From assembly GCF_054482595.1 (NCBI RefSeq), contig NZ_CM137008.1: a stretch of 64,000 nucleotides of DNA; one strand, 5' to 3'. Numbering within the stretch: position 1 is the stretch's first letter; every line of letters starts with the position of its first letter. The position numbers were made by a program, and so were the translations under genes. Of the stretch, positions 4,849 through 15,730 are shown in pieces. The notes beneath the pieces are model-generated. The model saw nothing but the letters and a program-made list of their open reading frames with translations, was not told the origin of the DNA and made no database searches.

Positions 4849-5283
4849 GATTACGCTCCTTTTGAAAGATGTCAGTAAAATTAACACACATTGTGAATGT
4901 CGTATGTCCGGTGATGCGTTTTTACGACAATAATGCCTGCTTGAAATTGTAGATATTTGCACTACACCCTTTTAAATAAAGCACCAACAAATCGTCAACT
5001 TGCAGAACATATTCTTCTGCCTACATACCATTAAGAAAACATCAAGTTCCCGACTTGCCAATTTATTAACGCCCATTATAGACGCTGAAACAAGCTACGG
5101 ACAAAGGAGATGCCAAAATTACCGGCAATGCAGAAAAACTCAACGAACCATGGCTCTTTACCACAGCAGCCGGGGTTGTTTGGGACCGACTTCCGACAGC
5201 AGATCCCGGTGGGCCTGCCACCATCTCTTCACAAGTTTATGCTTATTACATGCAAAACGTCCCGTTTTGCATCTTTGTGCCTA

Positions 5284-5400
5284 CGGCACACCGTGATCTT
5301 TCCCTGGTCCCTGTCCCGGATTGTAGTACCGGTGCCAGTTGTAGTGCAGTTCGGATTCGTCGTCATACTGCTAGCCCGGATGGCGGAGCAGTTGCTCTAG
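5284..5400 (-). pseudogene. Decayed fragment of an Rhs core end (orphan rhs remnant), interrupted by stops
   Basis: Minus-strand translation gives ...QYDDESELHYNWHRYYNPGQG..., resembling the Rhs core terminus [12 protein letters not shown]; stop codons on both sides; no intact downstream ORF. Confidence 0.5.
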
Positions 5401-5442
5401 TCACTCAGAATATTGTAATAGTGATAGAGTGCAGTGCCGGTT

Positions 5443-5856
5443 TCAATATCCTAACGCTGGTCTTTTGCCTGTATTAACTGATTTAGCTGGTTTGCTACAT
5501 ATTAATGCCTTCAGATTTTCCCTTTCCTTGTCTGTGATACTGTCACAAACCCTACTAGCCCATTCTACTTCACTCTTCTCCAGGCATTCTATTTTCTTAT
5601 TGCTCATTGTTCTAATGTTTGGTGTTGCATCTCCATTTAATAACATCCATGTTTCATTTTTCTTCATAAAACATCTTCCATTATGTTCAAAGATATTAGG
5701 TGTGAATATATTATCAGAATCCCATGTTACGACTTGCTCGAGGGCTATATTATCTTGATAGTCCATGCCAGCATTATAATAATCACAAGATATAATTATC
5801 ATGGAAATAATTATCATGGAAATAATTATCACTAATATCTTCCCAAGCATTTCCAT
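5443..5856 (-). CDS. Putative Rhs immunity protein, predicted lipoprotein
   Basis: 137-aa ORF whose ATG directly abuts the rhs stop codon; AT-rich; N-terminal hydrophobic segment ending in a lipobox-like IISC with Asp at +2. Confidence 0.55.
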   Translation of the reverse strand: MEMLGKILVIIISMIIISMIIISCDYYNAGMDYQDNIALEQVVTWDSDNIFTPNIFEHNGRCFMKKNETWMLLNGDATPNIRTMSNKKIECLEKSEVEWASRVCDSITDKERENLKALICSKPAKSVNTGKRPALGY

Positions 5857-8800
5857 TTACTTTACCTCTTGAAATTCAAATGGGAATCCAGTGAAAGGAC
5901 CTTTAGGCATAATATATCTTTGATATCCATAAAGCTCACCGAGCACTTGTAGGCTTATAGGCGCATTTGTATTCATAGAGGGGTTGTTAAACCCGCACGC
6001 CTCAAAAATCATGTTCGTTCGGCTAAAACAATTATTTAAAACAGGAAGAGGCCCGAGGTTAATAGTTTTTAGTTTTTTATTAAGGTCTATTGCCTTATTC
6101 ATCATACATTGTTCTTCTTCATCTGTTGTATCTATTATCCAAATCCAGGTATCTCTGCGGGATTGTATCTTTTTAAAATAATCAGAGACAGAGGCTCCCA
6201 TCTCATCCCCAGTTCCCGAACTCATTAATCCATATCGATTTGCCGCCGCAGCATGCCCAAAAGGATTATCAGGAACGGGGCCGTTACCTATTATCATAGT
6301 ACTAAGCCCTAATGGATCAACGTGTTGCACTGGATTCAGCGGATATTGGTACAGATTCCATCCCCCCTTCAGCCCTATCGGGTCCTGAGTGATATACCGC
6401 CCCTGCAACGGATCGTAGTACCGGTTCCGGTTGTAGTACAGCCCCGACTCCTTATCATACTGCTGCCCCGGCAGCCGGTACGGCTGGTGCAGGTGATGCG
6501 GGTTCTCCTCATTAAGCTGGTTGCCCCATTCATCATACTCCGCGCTCCACGCCGTATTGCCGTCTTCACTGATAAGCGCCAGCGGCAGGCCCCGGTGGTC
6601 GCAGTGGTAAAGATGAACTTTTCTCGCCGGTGTGTATTCCGGCTCCATCTGTCTGGCCAGTTGCTCCACCGTCAGCCCGCACTGCGCAAGCCACGCCCGG
6701 CTTTCACTGCTCACGCGGTCTGCCCGGATTTCTTCCTCCAGTCTGTCCAGCAGCCGCACCAGTTCAGCCGGAAATACCACGCCGTGCCCGTCCTCGCTCC
6801 CTTCCTGCTGCATCTTCTCCGCCAGGCTGCGGCGCTGCGCTTTCTCCCGCTCGCCGTTCTCTGTCTCGCCCCGGATGAGCGGCGTGAAGCTTCCCGGCTC
6901 GTATACCGTCTGGATACGTGTGGTGTCAGTCTGCACCGTCGTCAGCCTGTCGCCGTCCCACCCGTACCATGTCTCCTCCGGTTTACGCGACAGCGACATC
7001 CATCCCGTCAGGTCACGCCCGCGACGCCACACCCGTTTCGCCATTCGCCGTCCCAGCGGGTCGTAGAGGTAGCAGCTCTCGACCAGTGGCTCGCCATGCT
7101 GTATCCGCGTGTAGAACACCAGGCGGTGCTGGCTGTCGTAGTGATAGTGGTGGGTGCGCTCGTCGTGCATCCGGATAACCCCTTCCGGGATACGGTCCGT
7201 CTTCTCCGCCAGCCTGCCGTATTCATCGTAGCGGTAGACATAGTGCGCATCTTCCGCGATGCGGTTATCCGGCCACGCCGTGAAGGTGCTGTCCGGGTGC
7301 AGTTCCGGGTCCGGCAGCCGGTTTCCTGCCGGGTCCGTCGCATACGGGATATCGATATCCAGGTTCGCTGCCGTGGTGTGGACGCCCGTCAGCCTTCCCG
7401 TGCCGCTGTAACGGTACTCCCGGCTCTCCTGCGGGCCGCTGATGCGGATTAGCTGTCCGTTGTCGTTCCAGTCGTAGTCATGGTCAAGCTGCGGAAGGTT
7501 CAGGTGCCTGCTCCGGAGCTGGCCGCTGGTATTCCAGGCGGTGGCAAGTTCATATGCCTCCCCGCCGAAGCTGCGGGCCGTCTCACGGTGCAGCCGGTCC
7601 CGCGTGTACTCGACCAGCGGCGTTCCGCCCAGCTTCATCCCCGCAAGATAACCGCTGCCATACGTCAGCCACTCCACCCGCGGCAGGCTGTCCGGCGTGA
7701 CGCGGTTTGCCAGACCCTGTTCGTTGTATGCGTGCTCTGTCTCATGCTGCCACAGCAGTTCCCCCGTCTCCGGGTTATGCACCGTCTGGCGTTCGCCGGC
7801 CAGGCGACCCTTATCATCATAACCGTAATGCACCGCCACCTGATGGCCTTCGCTCAGGTGGCTGATGTCTGTCAGCCAGCCGTGGCCGTCATACTGCCAC
7901 TGCTCTGCCGGTTCACCGTTCACCGTGCGGTGAGTGATACGGTCCGATTCGTCGTAGTGCCAGAGGGTGACAAGTCCCTCATCCTCACTCTGTGTGAGTT
8001 TTCCGGTCAGGTCATAATGATAACGCTGCGTCCGCCCGTCAAAGCCGCCCTGCTGTACCAGGCGGTCCAGCGCATCGTAGCTGAAGTCGCTGTGACTGCC
8101 GTTCTCGTTGGTCAGGCTGATGACACGTCCGGCAGCATCGTACTCCATACTGCGCGTCAGCCCGCCCTGCGTGGTGCTGACCGCCTTTCCCCACGCATCG
8201 TACTGTGTCTCGCTCCGGTTGCCGTCCGGGGTGATAACGGCAGTCAGGTCGCCTGCGGCGTTGTATTCATACCGCGTTTCACGGCCCTGTGCGTCTTTCA
8301 CCGAGGTTAACCGGCCACGGTTGTCATAGCGGCGGTAAAGGCTGATGCCTTCCTCGCGGTGGACCGCCGTCATCTGGCCGAAGCGGTCGTATTCATAGCG
8401 GGTCTGGTAGCCCGAGCAGTCGGTGAACGCCAGCAACTGACCGTAGCGGCTCCACGTCATCTGCCGGGTGCTGCCCGTCGCATCTGTTGTCGTGGCCGGT
8501 AATTCACTGTGCGCATCATCATAGCGGTAGCGTACTGTCTCCCCGCTGCGCGATGTCTCCGTTACCAGCCTGTCCAGTTCATCATATGCCCGGCGGCTCT
8601 CCAGCCCGTCCGGGGACACCACCGCCGTCAGCTGGTTCCCGTCGTTATAGTAAAATTTCGTCTCCCGCCCGTCCGGTGTGGTGATGTCCGTGATATCGCC
8701 GGACACCACATTCAGACCGTACTCTGTCCGCCGTCCCGCCGCGTCCGTCTGCGCCGTGAGCCTTCCTGCCGCGTCATACCCGCTGTGCGTGACGCTGCCA

Positions 8801-10062
8801 TCCGCCAGTTCTTTTTTCACCACCCGTTTCAGCCCGCCTTCACCTTCTGTATGCAGCACCTCACGCCGGTTCAGGCTGTCGGTGACGGTGATGCGGTCCT
8901 GCTCATACTGGTAGCGGTAACTCAGGCCTGCCGGGTTAAGCTGCTCCACCACCCGCCCGGTATCGTCGTAGCGGTAGCGCATCTCCGGCCTTCCCGCATA
9001 ACGGTGCCCCACCATCCGGCCCGGGTGCTGCGCGTCATACGTGAAAGCGCGCACCTGTGTCCCGCTGCGGTCATATACCGCCAGCAGTTCACCGGCTTCC
9101 GTATACGTGTACCGCGCCAGTGGCGCTCCGGGCAGGCTCTCCGGGTATGCCGGGTCGTGCATCAGCCACACCGCCAAAAGGCGGATACCCCTGTCGGGGC
9201 CGTATTCGGTACCGGGCAGTGTGTCGGGGAACGCTGAGGCTGAGAGAGGGCGGGAACGGTCAGAAGAAGATAGCGAAGAGGTGCGGGCCTCTTCCGCACG
9301 CTGCGCCTGCGTGGTCAGCACCAGACGGAACTCCCGCCCGGCACCGTCCGTCACGCCGGTGATTTCCCCGGCCAGGTCACCGGCGGCCTCACGCCGGTAC
9401 GTCAGCGTCCGCCCGAAGCGGTCCGCCATCCCGGTAAGCACCCGGTACGGCGGCAGCGGCGCTGGCAGTACGTCCTCAGCACCCGGCACCCGCTCAGACC
9501 ACCCCAGTATCCACCACGGCCCCTGTGCGCTGTTGGTCGCCAGGTAAAGATGCGGGCTTAACCGGATATCCGGCGGCAGCGACGCCCACAGCCGTGCCAG
9601 CGTATGGCCGTCCGGCTGCGTTGCCTTACCGCCACGCACCAGCCACAGGGACTCGCTGCGGCTGTACACCGCCTCACCCGGCAGCAGCGGCTCAAAGTGA
9701 ATGCTCCGTCCGCCGTTGTCGTTGAGTACCAGTGCATCATCGCGTAGCTGTAAGCGGATATCAGAAGGCGCTTTCCAGCCGGGGCCAAAAATCCCCACCG
9801 GTGCAGGCGTCTTCGTCCGGTAGCTGCTGTAGGTGCGGGAGAGAATGAACGGCAGCGGGCCGGGCAGCGCAAGGTCCGTCTCGCCGGGCAGCACCTTCGC
9901 CCCCAGTAGCGGGTTTACCGGGTTAGAATAGGTGATACCGCCCGGACACACCGAGCACGCCACACCGGTCGGCGCGCCTATCAGTACCCCCGCTGACCCC
10001 TGGACTATCGGACCGCCGTACTGGGTCATATCTCCCTGGCGTGCCGCTGGTTTTCCGCTCAT
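5857..10062 (-). CDS. rhs: Rhs-family polymorphic toxin with N-terminal PAAR-like domain, YD-repeat core and variable C-terminal toxin tip
   Basis: 1401-aa ORF; N-terminus [11 protein letters not shown]...; many YD repeats; core terminus PxxxxDPLGL near 6305 followed by a roughly 148-aa AT-rich tip. Confidence 0.9.
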
Positions 10063-10129: not shown

Positions 10130-12238
10130 TCAGTACTCTCTCATATCCGGCGTATCCTGCTTTTCATCAGGTGTCTTCGGTGGGGATTTCGAGGCTGCAC
10201 AGTTCAAGTTAATCAACAGTGAGTCACCATTAACCTGCTCCTTACCCTGCAAATGAATTTTTGTGCCGTTGAGAAAAATTTGTCCGTCCTTCGTCAGCAC
10301 CAGCCTTGCCTTACCACAGCAGAGCTCCAGATGCTCCCCGGCAGAGTAAATCGCTGTCTGTCCGGTATCATCCTTCTTCGTTTTACCCACGGTGAAGGTG
10401 ACGTTATTTCCGACTTTAACGTCATATCCTTTCCCCACAAGCAGCGATTTATTTACCCCCACCTGCGAGGACTGCATCAGCGCCACCGAGGTGTTCATAA
10501 TGCCACCTACCGTCGTCTGATACGCCACGCCCACGGTCAGCGCACGAACAAGTCCAATCGTTTCCACCTGAACAGAACCCACTTTAATTATCTGGTTACT
10601 GCCCACCGTCTCTATCTGGTTAACACCCACCGTCTGTATCTGATTGTTGGTAACCGCAATCATCTGATTGTTGCCAATGGTTTCAGCATGGTTGTTTATC
10701 ACATCCGTGGTGCGGTTATTCAGCACCTCGGTGTTCATGTTCTTCTGCGCGTGGATGTAGACCTGTTCTTTCCCTGTCGCATCGTCAAACTTCAGTTCAT
10801 TAAACCCGCTGCCCTTATAGGTTTTCGAACGAATGGTCATCTGCGTCTTCGTCCCCGGCAGGCTGCCGGGGGTGCGGTTTTCCTGGTGGTAGGTACGCCC
10901 CATAATAATCGGCTGGTCCGGATCGCCGTTGAGGAAGTCCACAATCACCTCCTGACCCACACGCGGTATCGCCAGGTTGCCAAAGCCGGTGCCTGCCCAC
11001 GCCTGTGCCACACGGATCCAGCATGAACTGTCCTGGTTTGACGGGTTATAGCGGTCCCAGTTAAATTTCACCCGCACGCGGCCATGTTCATCACAGAAGA
11101 TTTCCTCGCCTGCCGGTCCCGTCACGACGGCGCTCTGCGGGCCGTCCACCATCGGTTTCAGCAACGGCTGTGGCCGCCATGTCCGGTCTGCCGGGATTAC
11201 CGCAAAGTGGTTATTCAGCGTGGTACCTGAACCACTGCGTCCCGGCACCGCCTGCGGCTGCTCGCCGTGCAGTTCACTTGCCACCACCTGCCATTCCCGG
11301 TTCAGGTTCGCCTGCGGATGCCCCGTCAGCGCAATTCGCCGTCCCGGCCATATCTCCGGAGAACGGCTTGTTCCGCGCGCCACTTCTGCGTTGTTTCGCC
11401 AGCCATCCATCTGCCAGCGGGCAAAGTTCTGCCCGTGGGCACCCTTGAAACGTCCGGGGTAGTCATACACTTCATACTGTGTGCGCTGGTAATCCTGGTA
11501 CTGGCCTTCCTGATCAAAACGCCCTGCCCAGCCGGGTCGTTTAAAGGTGTAGTCTTTGGTCACCACGGAAGAAGGGCGGATTTGTGCGCTGTAGCGAAAC
11601 TGGCTGATGCATAGGGTGCTCACCTCGGTACGGGTGTTCGGGTTCCAGGGGATCTCAAAGGACTCCGGCAGATAACGCACGGTGTCGCACAGGACCAGGC
11701 TCTGGTCGATACTTTTTTGCGCGTGCTCCTCATAAAAGAAGATGCCTTCCTCCGCCGCCATCCGGCACAGGAAATCGTAATCGGTTTCGCCGTACTGGAC
11801 ACAAAACTCACGGGAAGGATGTGGCTCGCTGAACAGCGGGCTCCACTCGGTAACCCCGTTTTCCTGCAATATCGTGCCGAGGATGCTTTCGATGTCCTCA
11901 TTCTGGAAGATACGGAAGTTCTGGCGCAGCCCTGTGCGCCACAGCGGTGGGCACACCTTCATGCTGTACAGCATCTGGTTTTTGTCGTTCTCCCCCAGTT
12001 CAAACCAGGTCACCATACCTTTCACCCGGCGCTGTACGTCATCGCCCTGCCATACCGTCAGGTAGGCCATTTTGTCCAGCACCTGCGCAAATTCAAGGGA
12101 AAGAAACTGCTGACTGACCAGAGAAAGGTCGAGGGAAAAAAGTGAAGAGAGTGACTGGGAGAGGTGAAAGGAAACCACCGCAAAAGCATCCGGTGGCAGG
12201 CCGTCCACTTCAAGTGTGAAACGTAATCCGGTTGACAT
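10130..12238 (-). CDS. vgrG: Type VI secretion spike protein VgrG
   Basis: ORF 10130..12274; start placed at MSTGLRFTLEVDGLPPDAF with a ggagg SD just upstream; gp27/gp5-like sequence with C-terminal Val/Gly-rich repeats. Confidence 0.85.
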   Translation of the reverse strand: MSTGLRFTLEVDGLPPDAFAVVSFHLSQSLSSLFSLDLSLVSQQFLSLEFAQVLDKMAYLTVWQGDDVQRRVKGMVTWFELGENDKNQMLYSMKVCPPLWRTGLRQNFRIFQNEDIESILGTILQENGVTEWSPLFSEPHPSREFCVQYGETDYDFLCRMAAEEGIFFYEEHAQKSIDQSLVLCDTVRYLPESFEIPWNPNTRTEVSTLCISQFRYSAQIRPSSVVTKDYTFKRPGWAGRFDQEGQYQDYQRTQYEVYDYPGRFKGAHGQNFARWQMDGWRNNAEVARGTSRSPEIWPGRRIALTGHPQANLNREWQVVASELHGEQPQAVPGRSGSGTTLNNHFAVIPADRTWRPQPLLKPMVDGPQSAVVTGPAGEEIFCDEHGRVRVKFNWDRYNPSNQDSSCWIRVAQAWAGTGFGNLAIPRVGQEVIVDFLNGDPDQPIIMGRTYHQENRTPGSLPGTKTQMTIRSKTYKGSGFNELKFDDATGKEQVYIHAQKNMNTEVLNNRTTDVINNHAETIGNNQMIAVTNNQIQTVGVNQIETVGSNQIIKVGSVQVETIGLVRALTVGVAYQTTVGGIMNTSVALMQSSQVGVNKSLLVGKGYDVKVGNNVTFTVGKTKKDDTGQTAIYSAGEHLELCCGKARLVLTKDGQIFLNGTKIHLQGKEQVNGDSLLINLNCAASKSPPKTPDEKQDTPDMREY

Positions 12239-13346
12239 AGCAACCTCCGTGAAAATGAATAATAATCCGCACATATTGCATGTACAACATGTCGGGCGGA
12301 TGAGATAAGCGAGTCGACATCTGGCGTTACCGGGGAATATCAGAAAAATGTCATGGTTATGTGATGATTTAGTCTGGGATTTTACTTCAGAGAAACGGGT
12401 GTCTGTTTAGTCAACAAAATAATCACAAACGCAACGGATGGGTTCTCGACGTTATTCACGACAGGCTCGTACATTACAGCGAGTAATAAAAAACCCGATA
12501 TGCAAAGTCAAACCAATATTCATAATGTCTTTTTATTCACAACAATAAATAATTTAATAACAATCATTGAAATGAATGATGATTTGTATAAGGAATATAC
12601 GCTACCGCCCCACCCTGATAACATGATCTGCACATTGCCATCTTAACGTCGTTAAACACTGGCTTAATAGTGGATATTTCAAATTAGGAATTTATTAAAT
12701 TCACCTGATGAATATCATAAGCAAATAGCATAGAAAATAATGACAACTCCCCCGAGGGGACCATTTCCAAAGCACTGCACCACCACCTGGTGCCCGGATG
12801 ATCTTGCTTCAGTGGTAAGAGTACCTGATTCATTGTTCCCAAAATGGTGTTTTCCCCTGCCCCTCCAATAATGTGCAGCTCTCACGTGATAATCTATTGA
12901 TTAGGTTATATTAAGAATCAATATTTAAAATACATCCATTTTCTTGAATAAATCAACATGTTTATTAATCAATTGCTGTTTTAGCTCTGACTCATCAAGC
13001 TCTCCATATTTGTCCTACAGATAATTGCGAATAAATACAGAGAACGCCATTTATCCTTTTAGCATACCTGCCGGATATTTTTATTTGTATTAATATTAAT
13101 TGCATCTCCAACTCCGAGCATATCCATCATTAAAAAAATTTTGAGATTATAGAATACCTGTGATAACAAGTGAAACATCTGCACAATGTGAATAGTTAGT
13201 TTCTTTTCAGAGGAAATGAAATAGACACGCTGAATGAAAGGGAGAGTGATATAAATTAAAAAACATAACGTGAATTTAATTAATTACGCCCATCATTGTG
13301 GATAAAGTTACTGAATAATAAATAACATAATCTTCTGGTATCCCAC

Positions 13347-13964
13347 TCAAATAATTTCATTCCTTTTTAGTATTTCTTGTAACGTTGGTAACTGACATAC
13401 AGCATCAGCAATCGCACTGATATTCGTGGCATTATCCTGAAACCATTCATGCCCAGGCCCCCATGTGCGCATAGTGCAAAGATAACAGTCCACCAGCGTT
13501 AGTTGCTCACCAAACGCATAAGGTTCAGCGGTCAATTGTGAATTCAGCCAGATATAAAGCGATTTACGATATTCAATAACATTCTTCTTTAACTGTTCGG
13601 GTGCGTCAGGAGCCCAACGCTCAGGGTAATCGGCGAAAGTGAATGTTGGATAGACATTAGCAACCAGCCAGACCAATAGCCGTTGAAACTGCTGACGTTC
13701 GGCGCGCCCAACCGGTGGCGCAAGGTCCGGGCGACGATCGAGAACCATCAATGCAATCGCCGCTGTCTCCGTCATAATCTCGTCATTTTCCAATGCCAGT
13801 GTCGGAACCTGACACAACGGGTTCAGGGTTTTCAATAACTCGCGTGAAGCTCCCTCGTGGTCAAAACCACTGACATCAACGAACTGATAAGGAATATCAG
13901 CCAGTGTTAGCATCAGCTCACTGATTGTAGAGCCCCATCCGGGTACGCCATACACCTTAATCAT
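13347..13964 (-). CDS. yncG: Glutathione S-transferase homolog
   Basis: 205-aa ORF; GST-like N-terminal thioredoxin fold; synteny next to ansP. Confidence 0.8.
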   Translation of the reverse strand: MIKVYGVPGWGSTISELMLTLADIPYQFVDVSGFDHEGASRELLKTLNPLCQVPTLALENDEIMTETAAIALMVLDRRPDLAPPVGRAERQQFQRLLVWLVANVYPTFTFADYPERWAPDAPEQLKKNVIEYRKSLYIWLNSQLTAEPYAFGEQLTLVDCYLCTMRTWGPGHEWFQDNATNISAIADAVCQLPTLQEILKRNEII

Positions 13965-14230
13965 ATGCCCCTCACAATCTTTTAAAGATTAAGTGTAGGA
14001 CAGTACACAGGTTAACCAGCAAAAGGATTTGTCATTTTTTCGTCAGTTGTATTAATCCCCTTCAGGATTGTAAGGGGATGTTTTGCATCGTTTATCGATA
14101 ACGGGTAGGATGCTGCGCCGATAGTTTTATACCCATAAAGAATAATGGTGATAACTATCATCGCCAGGATGAATAAACATTGTTCATGGCAACTTATATG
14201 ACTTTTTCATTAAAGCAATCAGGGAGAGCA

Positions 14231-15730
14231 ATGAGTAAACACGACACCGACACTTCAGATCAACACGCCGCGAAACGCCGCTGGCTTAATGCCCACGAAG
14301 AGGGGTATCACAAAGCGATGGGCAATCGCCAGGTACAGATGATCGCCATTGGCGGCGCGATTGGCACCGGCTTGTTTTTAGGTGCAGGAGCCCGACTGCA
14401 AATGGCGGGTCCAGCACTGGCACTGGTTTATTTAATTTGTGGCTTGTTTTCGTTTTTTATTCTGCGTGCATTGGGTGAGCTGGTGCTACACCGCCCTTCC
14501 AGTGGCAGTTTTGTCTCTTATGCCCGTGAGTTTTTGGGTGAGAAAGCCGCTTATGTTGCTGGCTGGATGTACTTCATCAACTGGGCGATGACGGGGATTG
14601 TTGATATTACCGCCGTCGCTCTGTATATGCATTACTGGGGTGCGTTTGGCGGCGTGCCGCAGTGGGTCTTTGCGCTCGCTGCACTTACCATCGTTGGCAC
14701 CATGAATATGATCGGTGTGAAATGGTTTGCGGAGATGGAGTTCTGGTTTGCGCTTATTAAAGTGCTCGCCATTGTGACCTTTTTGGTCGTGGGTACAGTG
14801 TTCCTCGGTAGTGGTCAGCCGCTGGATGGCAACACCACTGGCTTTCATTTAATCACCGATAATGGCGGCTTCTTCCCCCACGGTTTGCTGCCTGCGCTGG
14901 TGTTGATTCAGGGCGTAGTGTTTGCTTTTGCCTCCATTGAAATGGTGGGTACAGCTGCCGGAGAATGTAAAGATCCGCAGACCATGGTGCCTAAAGCGAT
15001 TAACAGTGTGATTTGGCGTATTGGCCTGTTTTACGTCGGCTCCGTGGTGTTGCTGGTTATGTTATTGCCGTGGAGCGCGTATCAGGCGGGGCAAAGTCCG
15101 TTCGTGACGTTTTTCTCTAAACTGGGTGTGCCATATATCGGCAGCATTATGAACATTGTGGTGCTGACCGCTGCCCTCTCCAGCCTGAATTCAGGTCTGT
15201 ACTGCACCGGACGTATTCTGCGCTCAATGGCGATGGGCGGTTCCGCACCGAGTTTTATGGCGAAAATGAGTCGTCAGCATGTACCGTATGCCGGGATTCT
15301 GGCGACACTGGTTGTGTATGTCGTCGGCGTATTCCTCAACTATCTGGTGCCGTCGCGCGTATTTGAGATTGTGTTGAACTTCGCGTCGCTGGGAATCATC
15401 GCTTCATGGGCGTTTATCATCGTGTGCCAGATGCGCCTGCGTAAAGCGATTAAAGAAGGCAAAGCAGCGGATGTCAGTTTTAAACTGCCTGGCGCGCCCT
15501 TCACTTCCTGGCTGACATTACTGTTTTTACTGAGTGTCCTTGTGCTGATGGCGTTCGATTACCCGAACGGGACTTATACTATCGCGGCGCTGCCGATTAT
15601 CGGTATTCTGCTGGTTATAGGCTGGTTTGGTGTGCGCAAACGCGTTGCCGAAATTCACAGCACTGCGCCAGTCGTCGAGGAAGATGAAGAAAAACAGGAA
15701 ATTGTGTTTAAGCCTGAAACGGCGAGTTAA
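14231..15730 (+). CDS. ansP: L-asparagine permease (APC-family amino acid transporter)
   Basis: ORF 14180..15730; start placed at MSKHDTDTSDQ to give 499 aa; multi-pass membrane protein. Confidence 0.85.
   Translation: MSKHDTDTSDQHAAKRRWLNAHEEGYHKAMGNRQVQMIAIGGAIGTGLFLGAGARLQMAGPALALVYLICGLFSFFILRALGELVLHRPSSGSFVSYAREFLGEKAAYVAGWMYFINWAMTGIVDITAVALYMHYWGAFGGVPQWVFALAALTIVGTMNMIGVKWFAEMEFWFALIKVLAIVTFLVVGTVFLGSGQPLDGNTTGFHLITDNGGFFPHGLLPALVLIQGVVFAFASIEMVGTAAGECKDPQTMVPKAINSVIWRIGLFYVGSVVLLVMLLPWSAYQAGQSPFVTFFSKLGVPYIGSIMNIVVLTAALSSLNSGLYCTGRILRSMAMGGSAPSFMAKMSRQHVPYAGILATLVVYVVGVFLNYLVPSRVFEIVLNFASLGIIASWAFIIVCQMRLRKAIKEGKAADVSFKLPGAPFTSWLTLLFLLSVLVLMAFDYPNGTYTIAALPIIGILLVIGWFGVRKRVAEIHSTAPVVEEDEEKQEIVFKPETAS

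Follow-up and report, generated by a model that had tools for sequence, protein, structure and literature searches.

The AT-rich yncH-vgrG junction of Escherichia coli as a probable composite of island-head DNA, a non-coding spacer and the orphan gene yncH

Introduction

The promoter of the sci1 T6SS of enteroaggregative Escherichia coli is under the control of Fur and Dam. Orphan vgrG islands (vgrG-Rhs/PAAR) are cargo islands in which vgrG is followed by the gene for an Rhs toxin and by a small putative immunity gene, and the DNA upstream of vgrG is AT-rich and repressed by H-NS. In EHEC, rhsE was placed downstream of its own vgrG (PMC7216683), and work on EHEC stated that it is unknown which regulators act on the orphan vgrG islands of E. 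coli (PMC13141884).

The closest described counterpart of the region analyzed here is the yncH-rhsE intergenic region of K-12 (b1455-b1456), where the genes are arranged in the order ansP, yncG, yncH, and Rhs element. The RpoD holoenzyme was found to bind the K-12 yncH>rhsE spacer in vitro (gSELEX), the spacer carries an HNS flag, and a promoter, TTGACT-17-TATTAC, was predicted for it (PMC3946193). The K-12 DNA orthologous to our region is also bound by H-NS around position 1527862 of NC_000913.3, and a weak PhoB ChIP-seq site, TATCAGAAAAATGTCATG, lies in this H-NS-bound region (PMC10294691 Table 1).

Here, we analyzed the DNA between vgrG and yncG in a window of 64,000 nucleotides, the window being the whole stretch of DNA under analysis, with attention to positions 12275-13346. 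A preliminary description had taken this region for horizontally acquired, H-NS-silenced DNA and for the likely vgrG-rhs promoter region, and had pointed to a GC-richer pocket within it that could be a small protein gene, an sRNA, or a gene remnant. Our preferred reading, to which we assign a probability of about 0.8, is that three parts make up the region: the head module of the vgrG island, a spacer pocket, and yncH.

Results

The region 12275-13346 was 100% identical to the corresponding DNA of E. coli XH990 and 96.7-99% identical to that of ~3550 of the 5426 complete E. coli genomes. In the RefSeq annotation of XH990, a small hypothetical gene, the gene for the RHS core protein, the VgrG gene, yncH, and yncG follow each other, all on the minus strand of the window, and ansP comes after yncG on the plus strand (Table 1). 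The locus is the RhsE locus, and the region is the already known and annotated yncG-yncH-(vgrG)-rhsE junction of E. coli, an ordinary one. As in the orphan vgrG cargo islands, vgrG is followed here by an Rhs gene and a small gene, and AT-rich DNA is found upstream. The gene order is also that of K-12, in which the orthologous DNA is 98% identical to window positions 12306-13346. However, a deletion with its junction at ~12306 has removed vgrG and the 5' part of rhsE from K-12, while in the window the vgrG-rhs unit is intact. The left boundary of the region, 12275, had been set by the longest ORF of vgrG, starting at 12274. The annotated start is 12238 instead, a position on which RefSeq, the gene call in Escherichia sp. 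E4742, and the presence of a GGAGG 8 nt upstream all agree.

Table 1. Coordinates of the features at the vgrG-yncG junction, in window positions
Feature	Coordinates	Strand	Basis
Small hypothetical gene	5443-5856	-	RefSeq XH990
RHS core protein	5857-10062	-	RefSeq XH990
vgrG, encoding the T6SS tip protein, in the orphan vgrG-rhs island (RhsE-type)	10130-12238	-	RefSeq XH990, 100% identical; N-terminus MSTGLRFTLEVDGL
Proximal leader with the vgrG Shine-Dalgarno	12239-12305	-	67/67 identical to E4742; deleted in K-12
Island-head module, upstream/leader DNA travelling with vgrG islands	12306-12745	-	~80% identity to the cusS-adjacent island
Weak PhoB ChIP-seq site of K-12, TATCAGAAAAATGTCATG	12336-12353		PMC10294691 Table 1; sequence read in window
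gSELEX-predicted sigma-70 promoter TTGACT-17-TATTAC	12483-12511	-	PMC3946193; exact match in window
Conserved 56-nt block, ACGCTACCGCCCCACCCTGATAACATGATCTGCAC...	12592-12647		Identity to E4742; kept across island types
43-codon open frame, best explained as a chance ORF	12740-12871	+	Frameshift allele, W36stop, ATG>ATA, no Shine-Dalgarno, no homologues
GC-richer pocket, single-copy, Escherichia-specific, unannotated	12746-12871		51.5% GC; outside head module
CCC/CC length polymorphism, shifts every frame across the pocket	12793-12795		Strain comparison
AT-rich spacer, pocket to yncH stop codon	12872-13058		93.0% identity to E4742, similar to adjacent DNA
yncH, YncH/DUF5445 family, Escherichia-restricted orphan	13059-13280	-	RefSeq XH990; family match; synteny
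yncG, glutathione S-transferase family, conserved right-hand neighbour	13347-13964	-	RefSeq XH990

What had been observed about the composition of the region was confirmed. With its 1072 nt, it is the largest gap of the window without an ORF of at least 60 aa started by ATG, GTG, or TTG, followed by a gap of 902 nt, which lies where the window ends, and by one of 483 nt; this is true for canonical starts, but on the minus strand 73 codons homologous to yncH can be read without interruption. Its GC content was 35.4%, compared with 50.4% for the whole window, which makes it the kilobase poorest in GC, and the eight segments of 1072 nt with the lowest GC all start within 12201-12551. A/T runs of at least 5 were only modestly enriched (6 in 1072 nt vs. 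3.9 per kb overall). The stretch 12740-12871 was indeed GC-richer (51.5% vs. 33.1% in the remainder of the gap), and the 43-aa ORF was present on its plus strand as quoted.

The proposal of horizontal acquisition agrees with the distribution of the DNA, since yncH, the pocket, and vgrG are missing 3' of yncG in one divergent Escherichia genome as well as in Citrobacter, Klebsiella, and Enterobacter. In these genomes, and in Leclercia too, the genes that come after yncG are unrelated ones. Both AT-richness and a patchy phylogenetic distribution, as expected for acquired DNA, were thus found. Elsewhere in E. coli, the ansP/yncG site holds either a DcrB-type island, in which case yncG and yncH are both missing, or a PAAR-Vgr-DUF4123 island immediately after yncG. 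The DcrB-type and PAAR-type islands share with the window only the distal ~120-145 nt of the head module, and the pocket together with yncH (~12732-13322) forms an indel of ~590 nt relative to the PAAR-type island. Because unrelated genes follow yncG in the relatives and alternative islands occupy the site, the whole gap can be regarded as accessory, Escherichia-specific DNA.

The extent of the head module was apparent from comparison with a vgrG island adjacent to cusS in another strain (L004), to which window positions 10707-12743 aligned at 88% identity. For the part of this alignment that lies in the gap (12300-12743) and corresponds to the upstream DNA of that island, identity was ~80%, and in a three-way alignment the similarity ended at ~12743-12745, a few bases into the 43-aa ORF. 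Judging by these alignments, the left ~470 nt of the gap belong to the vgrG island.

Regarding the regulatory signals of the head module, the H-NS reading of the preliminary description is consistent with the binding reported for the orthologous DNA of K-12, from which silencing would be expected by analogy in this strain. The reading as the vgrG-rhs promoter region is likewise in line with the in vitro binding of the RNA polymerase holoenzyme in K-12, but the promoter there is a predicted one and its geometry is not conserved. As a conserved vgrG promoter, TTGACT-17-TATTAC was rejected: its spacing is 3 nt longer in E4742, and in the cusS-island paralogue it is 8 nt shorter, with TTAACT. On the vgrG strand, the -35/-10 pairs with a spacing of 16-18 nt were TTATCA-16-TATATT (12621-12594), TGTACA-16-TATTAT (12286-12259), and TTGACT-17-TATTAC (12511-12483), and the number of sigma-70-like hexamer pairs on this strand was at the level expected by chance. 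The sequence of the PhoB site was not conserved in the cusS-adjacent island. An RpoN gSELEX peak named "yncH>ydcD 1527534" was discarded, as on U00096.2 coordinates it falls inside rhsE and outside the gap; the coordinates were assigned to U00096.2 because the pspF/pspA peak of the same paper fits that version alone. No GG-N10-GC match for sigma-54 was seen by eye in the pocket. Between the pocket and yncH, by coordinate conversion, a K-12 FlhDC gSELEX peak maps near 12872-13058.

One element of the head module stood out by its conservation. The 56-nt block was identical to E4742 at 56 of 56 positions, compared with 93-94% in its flanks (~6% diverged), and 52-54 nt of it recur ahead of three further types of vgrG island. 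The block accompanies RhsE-type, cusS-adjacent, PAAR-Vgr-DUF4123, and DcrB-type islands, and it was present in 4714 of the 5426 genomes, with up to 3 copies in each. It holds the promoter-like TTATCA-16-TATATT on the minus strand and a GATC site. This promoter-like site, matching the consensus at 9 of 12 positions, is fully conserved in the window, in E4742, and in the cusS island, but conservation of its -10 does not extend to the more distant island types. The GATC beside a GATAAC/ATGATC motif recalls the overlapping Fur boxes and Dam sites of the sci1 promoter. A Fur box was, however, rejected for the block: no 19-mer started within it matched the Fur consensus at 11 or more of 19 positions, and many other AT-rich sites of the window scored higher. 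On the strength of these comparisons, the block is the only constrained element of the region and the best candidate for the promoter or regulator-binding site of the island. In the literature on this island type, we found no mapped promoter, transcription start site, or regulator, and the block was not described.

The pocket begins exactly where the head module ends. In K-12, by conversion from the PhoB site, it corresponds to about 1,527,34x-1,527,47x of NC_000913.3, within a junction at roughly 1.5269-1.5279 Mb. It was found in 3571 of the 5426 genomes, at a median of 1 place per genome, and was never annotated. Its identity to E4742 was 94.4%, compared with 93.0-93.9% for the neighboring non-coding DNA, and in the strain PSS-12 positions 12661-12964 had been lost through an IS5-associated deletion. 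No relative of the pocket was found in plasmids or phages, the lone "plasmid" match being a mislabelled chromosome of 4.8 Mb, and a repeat of the IS, MITE, or REP type was rejected since the pocket is single-copy and matched no IS, plasmid, or phage. Because its rate of divergence matches that of the flanks and no relative could be identified, the pocket is best read as a neutrally evolving, non-coding spacer just outside the head module. This reading gives no account of the higher GC of the pocket. The spacer may nevertheless be transcribed, for example if transcripts of yncH extended into it or if it lay within a long leader of vgrG.

Among the alternatives for the pocket, the one that survives best, although improbable, is that of a degraded gene fragment, either a remnant of the vgrG N-terminus or the original gene after yncG, left between AT-rich acquisitions. 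A GC content near the genome average amid DNA of 33% GC and a position exactly at the island boundary speak for such a fragment, and at this locus other island types do have vgrG-fragment pseudogenes ahead of vgrG. In addition, tblastn weakly matched a minus frame to the VgrG of L005 (residues 89-108), with E = 0.024 for a very small search space. This was, however, the best match obtained against three VgrGs in following up a vgrG remnant, an idea prompted by a metagenome ORF (P0018), and it had no HMM support; the vgrG remnant was rejected as unsupported. Genes 3' of yncG in ten related loci were also considered as the source, but tblastn showed no similarity of the pocket to them beyond noise. 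No pocket frame had a match in Pfam or NCBIfam, even at E <= 10. Two pocket frames were compared with a word-indexed set of 5.8 billion protein clusters and the fused minus-strand ORF of K-12 with a HMMER set of 1.8 billion representatives, and the same Escherichia locus was the only credible match, the rest being repeat-derived and spurious. The gene remnant of the preliminary description thus had no identifiable source gene in protein, Pfam, NCBIfam, or neighbor-locus searches.

Somewhat less probable still is that the pocket is a small regulatory RNA, or part of one, or a functional minus-strand 3' UTR or terminator region of yncH. The pocket is downstream of yncH and co-oriented with it, and it contains a 5-bp GC hairpin with a T-rich tail, weakly terminator-like (minus strand, 12760-12748), as well as a 6-bp hairpin, GCACCA..TGGTGC. 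However, no family in Rfam 15 matched positions 12000-14300 at E <= 1, a tRNA/tmRNA scan of the pocket found none, and folding of the pocket was no better than that of shuffled sequences on either strand (z of +0.53 and -0.05). Promoter-like and terminator-like sites occurred in the pocket at or below chance frequency. Also against a functional RNA are a conservation that does not exceed that of the flanks, the indel polymorphism in the middle of the pocket, and the IS5 deletion in PSS-12, which was without obvious consequence. With no Rfam family, no fold signal, and sites at chance, the sRNA suggested earlier was not upheld.

The same indel polymorphism bears on the 43-aa ORF, for which a small protein had been considered. 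When the alleles were counted in the complete genomes with allele-specific 40/41-mers, the frameshift allele (CC, a 1-bp deletion) was found in 1821 genomes and the intact one (CCC) in 706; K-12 carries CC, whereas the window carries CCC. Among 8 sampled strains, 9 of the 132 positions were variable and nearly all substitutions were non-synonymous, and two of the strains, 127 and O103 FWSEC0007, carried W36stop. In E4742, the ATG of the ORF is ATA and both minus-strand ORFs of the pocket contain stops. No Shine-Dalgarno was present upstream of the 43-aa ORF, the exact products of the pocket ORFs were absent from a collection of 15 billion proteins, and the only relative found for the 43-aa ORF was P0018, a chimeric metagenome ORF of 40 aa. 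At ~50% GC, a 43-codon frame is estimated to be open with a probability of (61/64)^43, ~0.13 per frame, and three of the six frames are open across the pocket. Because the reading frame is broken in most strains, the 43-codon ORF is not a gene, and chance is the best explanation for this open frame and for the two on the minus strand. Although the ATG is present and the ORF intact in 706 genomes, O157:H7 included, so that the allele is fixed in a sizeable lineage, and although CC fuses two minus frames into a GTG-started ORF of 66 codons co-oriented with yncH and vgrG, a lineage-specific small protein, be it this Cys-containing one or a minus-strand product of 52-66 aa, is hardly credible given the frameshift, the stops, the lost start, and the lack of credible homologues beyond the locus.

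Three further observations on the pocket were set aside. A "divergent pocket" (P0021/L018) was rejected, as its indels were attributed to errors in a noisy contig assembly with 167 gap positions in 3.6 kb. An inverted repeat matching at 12 of 14 positions (CCGGATG...TTGC) links vgrG codons 15-19 with the pocket, and the corresponding inversion was seen in two metagenome contigs. It was dismissed as a switch between vgrG and the pocket, and because its junction was found in 0 of the 5426 complete genomes, the inversion was regarded as a rare variant or an assembly chimera. Finally, the inverted repeat 12689-12710/13264-13285 around the pocket and yncH, considered as the ends of a mobile unit, matched at 19 of 22 positions, which was equalled by 15 of 500 shuffles.

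A counterpart of K-12 yncH, which the preliminary description did not recognize, is present and annotated by RefSeq to the right of the pocket. Read from 13280 to 13059, the frame translates without a stop, and its product is 93% identical to K-12 YncH. It matched PF17520 (DUF5445) with 135.6 bits (cut-off 25, E = 5.1e-40) over positions 1-52 of the 52 of the model, and its location downstream of yncG is as in K-12 (RefSeq annotations of XH990 and C600). Despite this full-length match, the frame has no canonical start at the position usual for the family. The ATG of K-12 (window 13271-13269) is ACG here, a change seen in the window alone among the 8 sampled E. coli. The first canonical start is a GTG at 13184 that would leave 41 aa; RefSeq starts the gene at ATT 13280, and this 73-aa product is recorded from 698 contigs. 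No long ORF was seen at yncH because the ATG had mutated to ACG in this lineage. In FDAARGOS_1280 and 1281 the start is disrupted otherwise, by a 1-bp deletion, and it was thus disrupted in two separate ways in the strains sampled.

The YncH family was found only in Escherichia, and of its 160 clusters none of the 120 listed fell below 83% identity to the query. Codon differences between the yncH of the window and that of E4742 comprised 8 non-synonymous and 2 synonymous changes, and the nucleotide identity, 93.7%, was at the level of the adjacent non-coding DNA. Because of this 8:2 ratio and an identity like that of its non-coding neighbors, yncH looks like a weakly constrained, Escherichia-only orphan gene.

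Discussion

In the composite reading that we prefer, which draws on the observed anatomy, distribution, polymorphism, and conservation pattern of the region, positions 12239-12745 would be the leader or regulatory DNA of an orphan T6SS vgrG-rhs effector island of the RhsE type. This head module was probably acquired horizontally and is AT-rich, and by extension from K-12 it is likely to be bound and silenced by H-NS. It carries the vgrG Shine-Dalgarno and, in the constrained block 12592-12647, a candidate promoter or regulator-binding site, the promoter activity of the block being presumed. Outside the module, the pocket (12746-12871) would be a non-coding spacer that evolves at the neutral rate and contains chance ORFs, and 13059-13280 is yncH, an Escherichia-only orphan with its canonical start mutated to ACG in this lineage.

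The finding from which the analysis set out matters little, since the junction was known before and the small ORF turned out not to be a gene. For annotation, yncH illustrates that ORF scans limited to canonical starts miss annotated genes with a mutated start codon.

More tentatively, the 56-nt block could be a shared, so far undescribed cis element that heads otherwise unrelated orphan vgrG islands in Escherichia, a possibility that we consider clearly less likely than its opposite. Even so, the pocket would remain a spacer. If the element were real, it could be a common promoter or regulator site placing these islands under one signal or, alternatively, a recombination anchor for swaps of cargo islands at the ansP/yncG and cusS sites. 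The block is the sole item of the region that deserves follow-up, and it offers a concrete place in which to look for the regulators of the orphan vgrG islands.

Conservation and length variation ahead of vgrG

A 56-nt block in the DNA ahead of vgrG showed no differences when E. coli was compared with Escherichia sp. E4742, and was near-identical ahead of four vgrG island types, at the ansP/yncG and cusS sites. It was found in 4714 of 5426 genomes (at most three copies per genome) and contains a GATC site and, on the vgrG strand, the promoter-like sequence TTATCA-16-TATATT. Strains FDAARGOS_1280 and 1281 carry a 10-bp deletion in the vgrG leader, and the spacer of the gSELEX-predicted promoter has differing indels in E4742 and in the cusS-island paralogue. 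This stretch of the leader thus tolerates length changes. In strain PSS-12 (L003), an IS5 insertion and its associated deletion took out the pocket, the GC-richer stretch between vgrG and yncH, together with part of the island-head module upstream of vgrG; vgrG is truncated in this strain too.

Coordinates of features in the window
Feature	Position	Remark
Unannotated gap	4849–5442	~590 nt
Inverted segment	12180–12808	L032, L033
12/14 repeat, arm 1	12180–12193	vgrG codons 15–19
12/14 repeat, arm 2	12794–12807	pocket
Leader deletion	12469–12478	FDAARGOS_1280/1281
Predicted promoter spacer	12489–12505
Conserved block	12592–12647	56 nt
IS5-associated deletion (equivalent)	12661–12964	PSS-12
22-nt repeat, arm 1	12689–12710
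22-nt repeat, arm 2	13264–13285
yncH canonical ATG	13269–13271

Inverted sequences around the pocket

On two ENA metagenome contigs (L032 and L033), the segment reaching from vgrG into the pocket lies in inverted orientation. The joint falls at an inverted repeat that matches at 12 of 14 positions (CCGGATG[C/A]T[T/C]TTGC), with one arm in vgrG codons 15–19 and the other in the pocket, and the inversion produced the chimeric 40-aa ORF P0018. Its junction was present in none of the 5426 complete genomes, and the inversion is therefore either an infrequent variant or an artefact of chimeric assembly. A second inverted repeat, matching at 19 of 22 positions, flanks the pocket and yncH and is statistically weak, with 15 of 500 shuffles scoring as well. 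A 75-nt stretch was also seen to resemble, at 68% and in inverted orientation, the end of the module in locus L026.

Constraint on yncH

Among the sampled strains, the canonical start of yncH was lost by two distinct routes, through an ATG>ACG change in the window and through loss of a single base in FDAARGOS_1280/1281 (L022/L024), and RefSeq assigns ATT starts to both disrupted versions. The gene diverges from E4742 at the rate of non-coding DNA, with eight non-synonymous and two synonymous codon changes. This suggests that constraint on yncH is weak or absent.

Alternative islands at the ansP/yncG site

At the opposite end of the vgrG-rhs island, an unannotated gap of about 590 nt separates pptA from the putative Rhs immunity gene. 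In DcrB-type island loci, only faint remnants of yncG were seen. As compared across the loci of other strains (L005, L026, L027, and L015), the ansP/yncG site is a hotspot where three or more kinds of T6SS cargo island alternate: the RhsE type, the DcrB/DUF6531 type without yncGH, and PAAR-Vgr-DUF4123.
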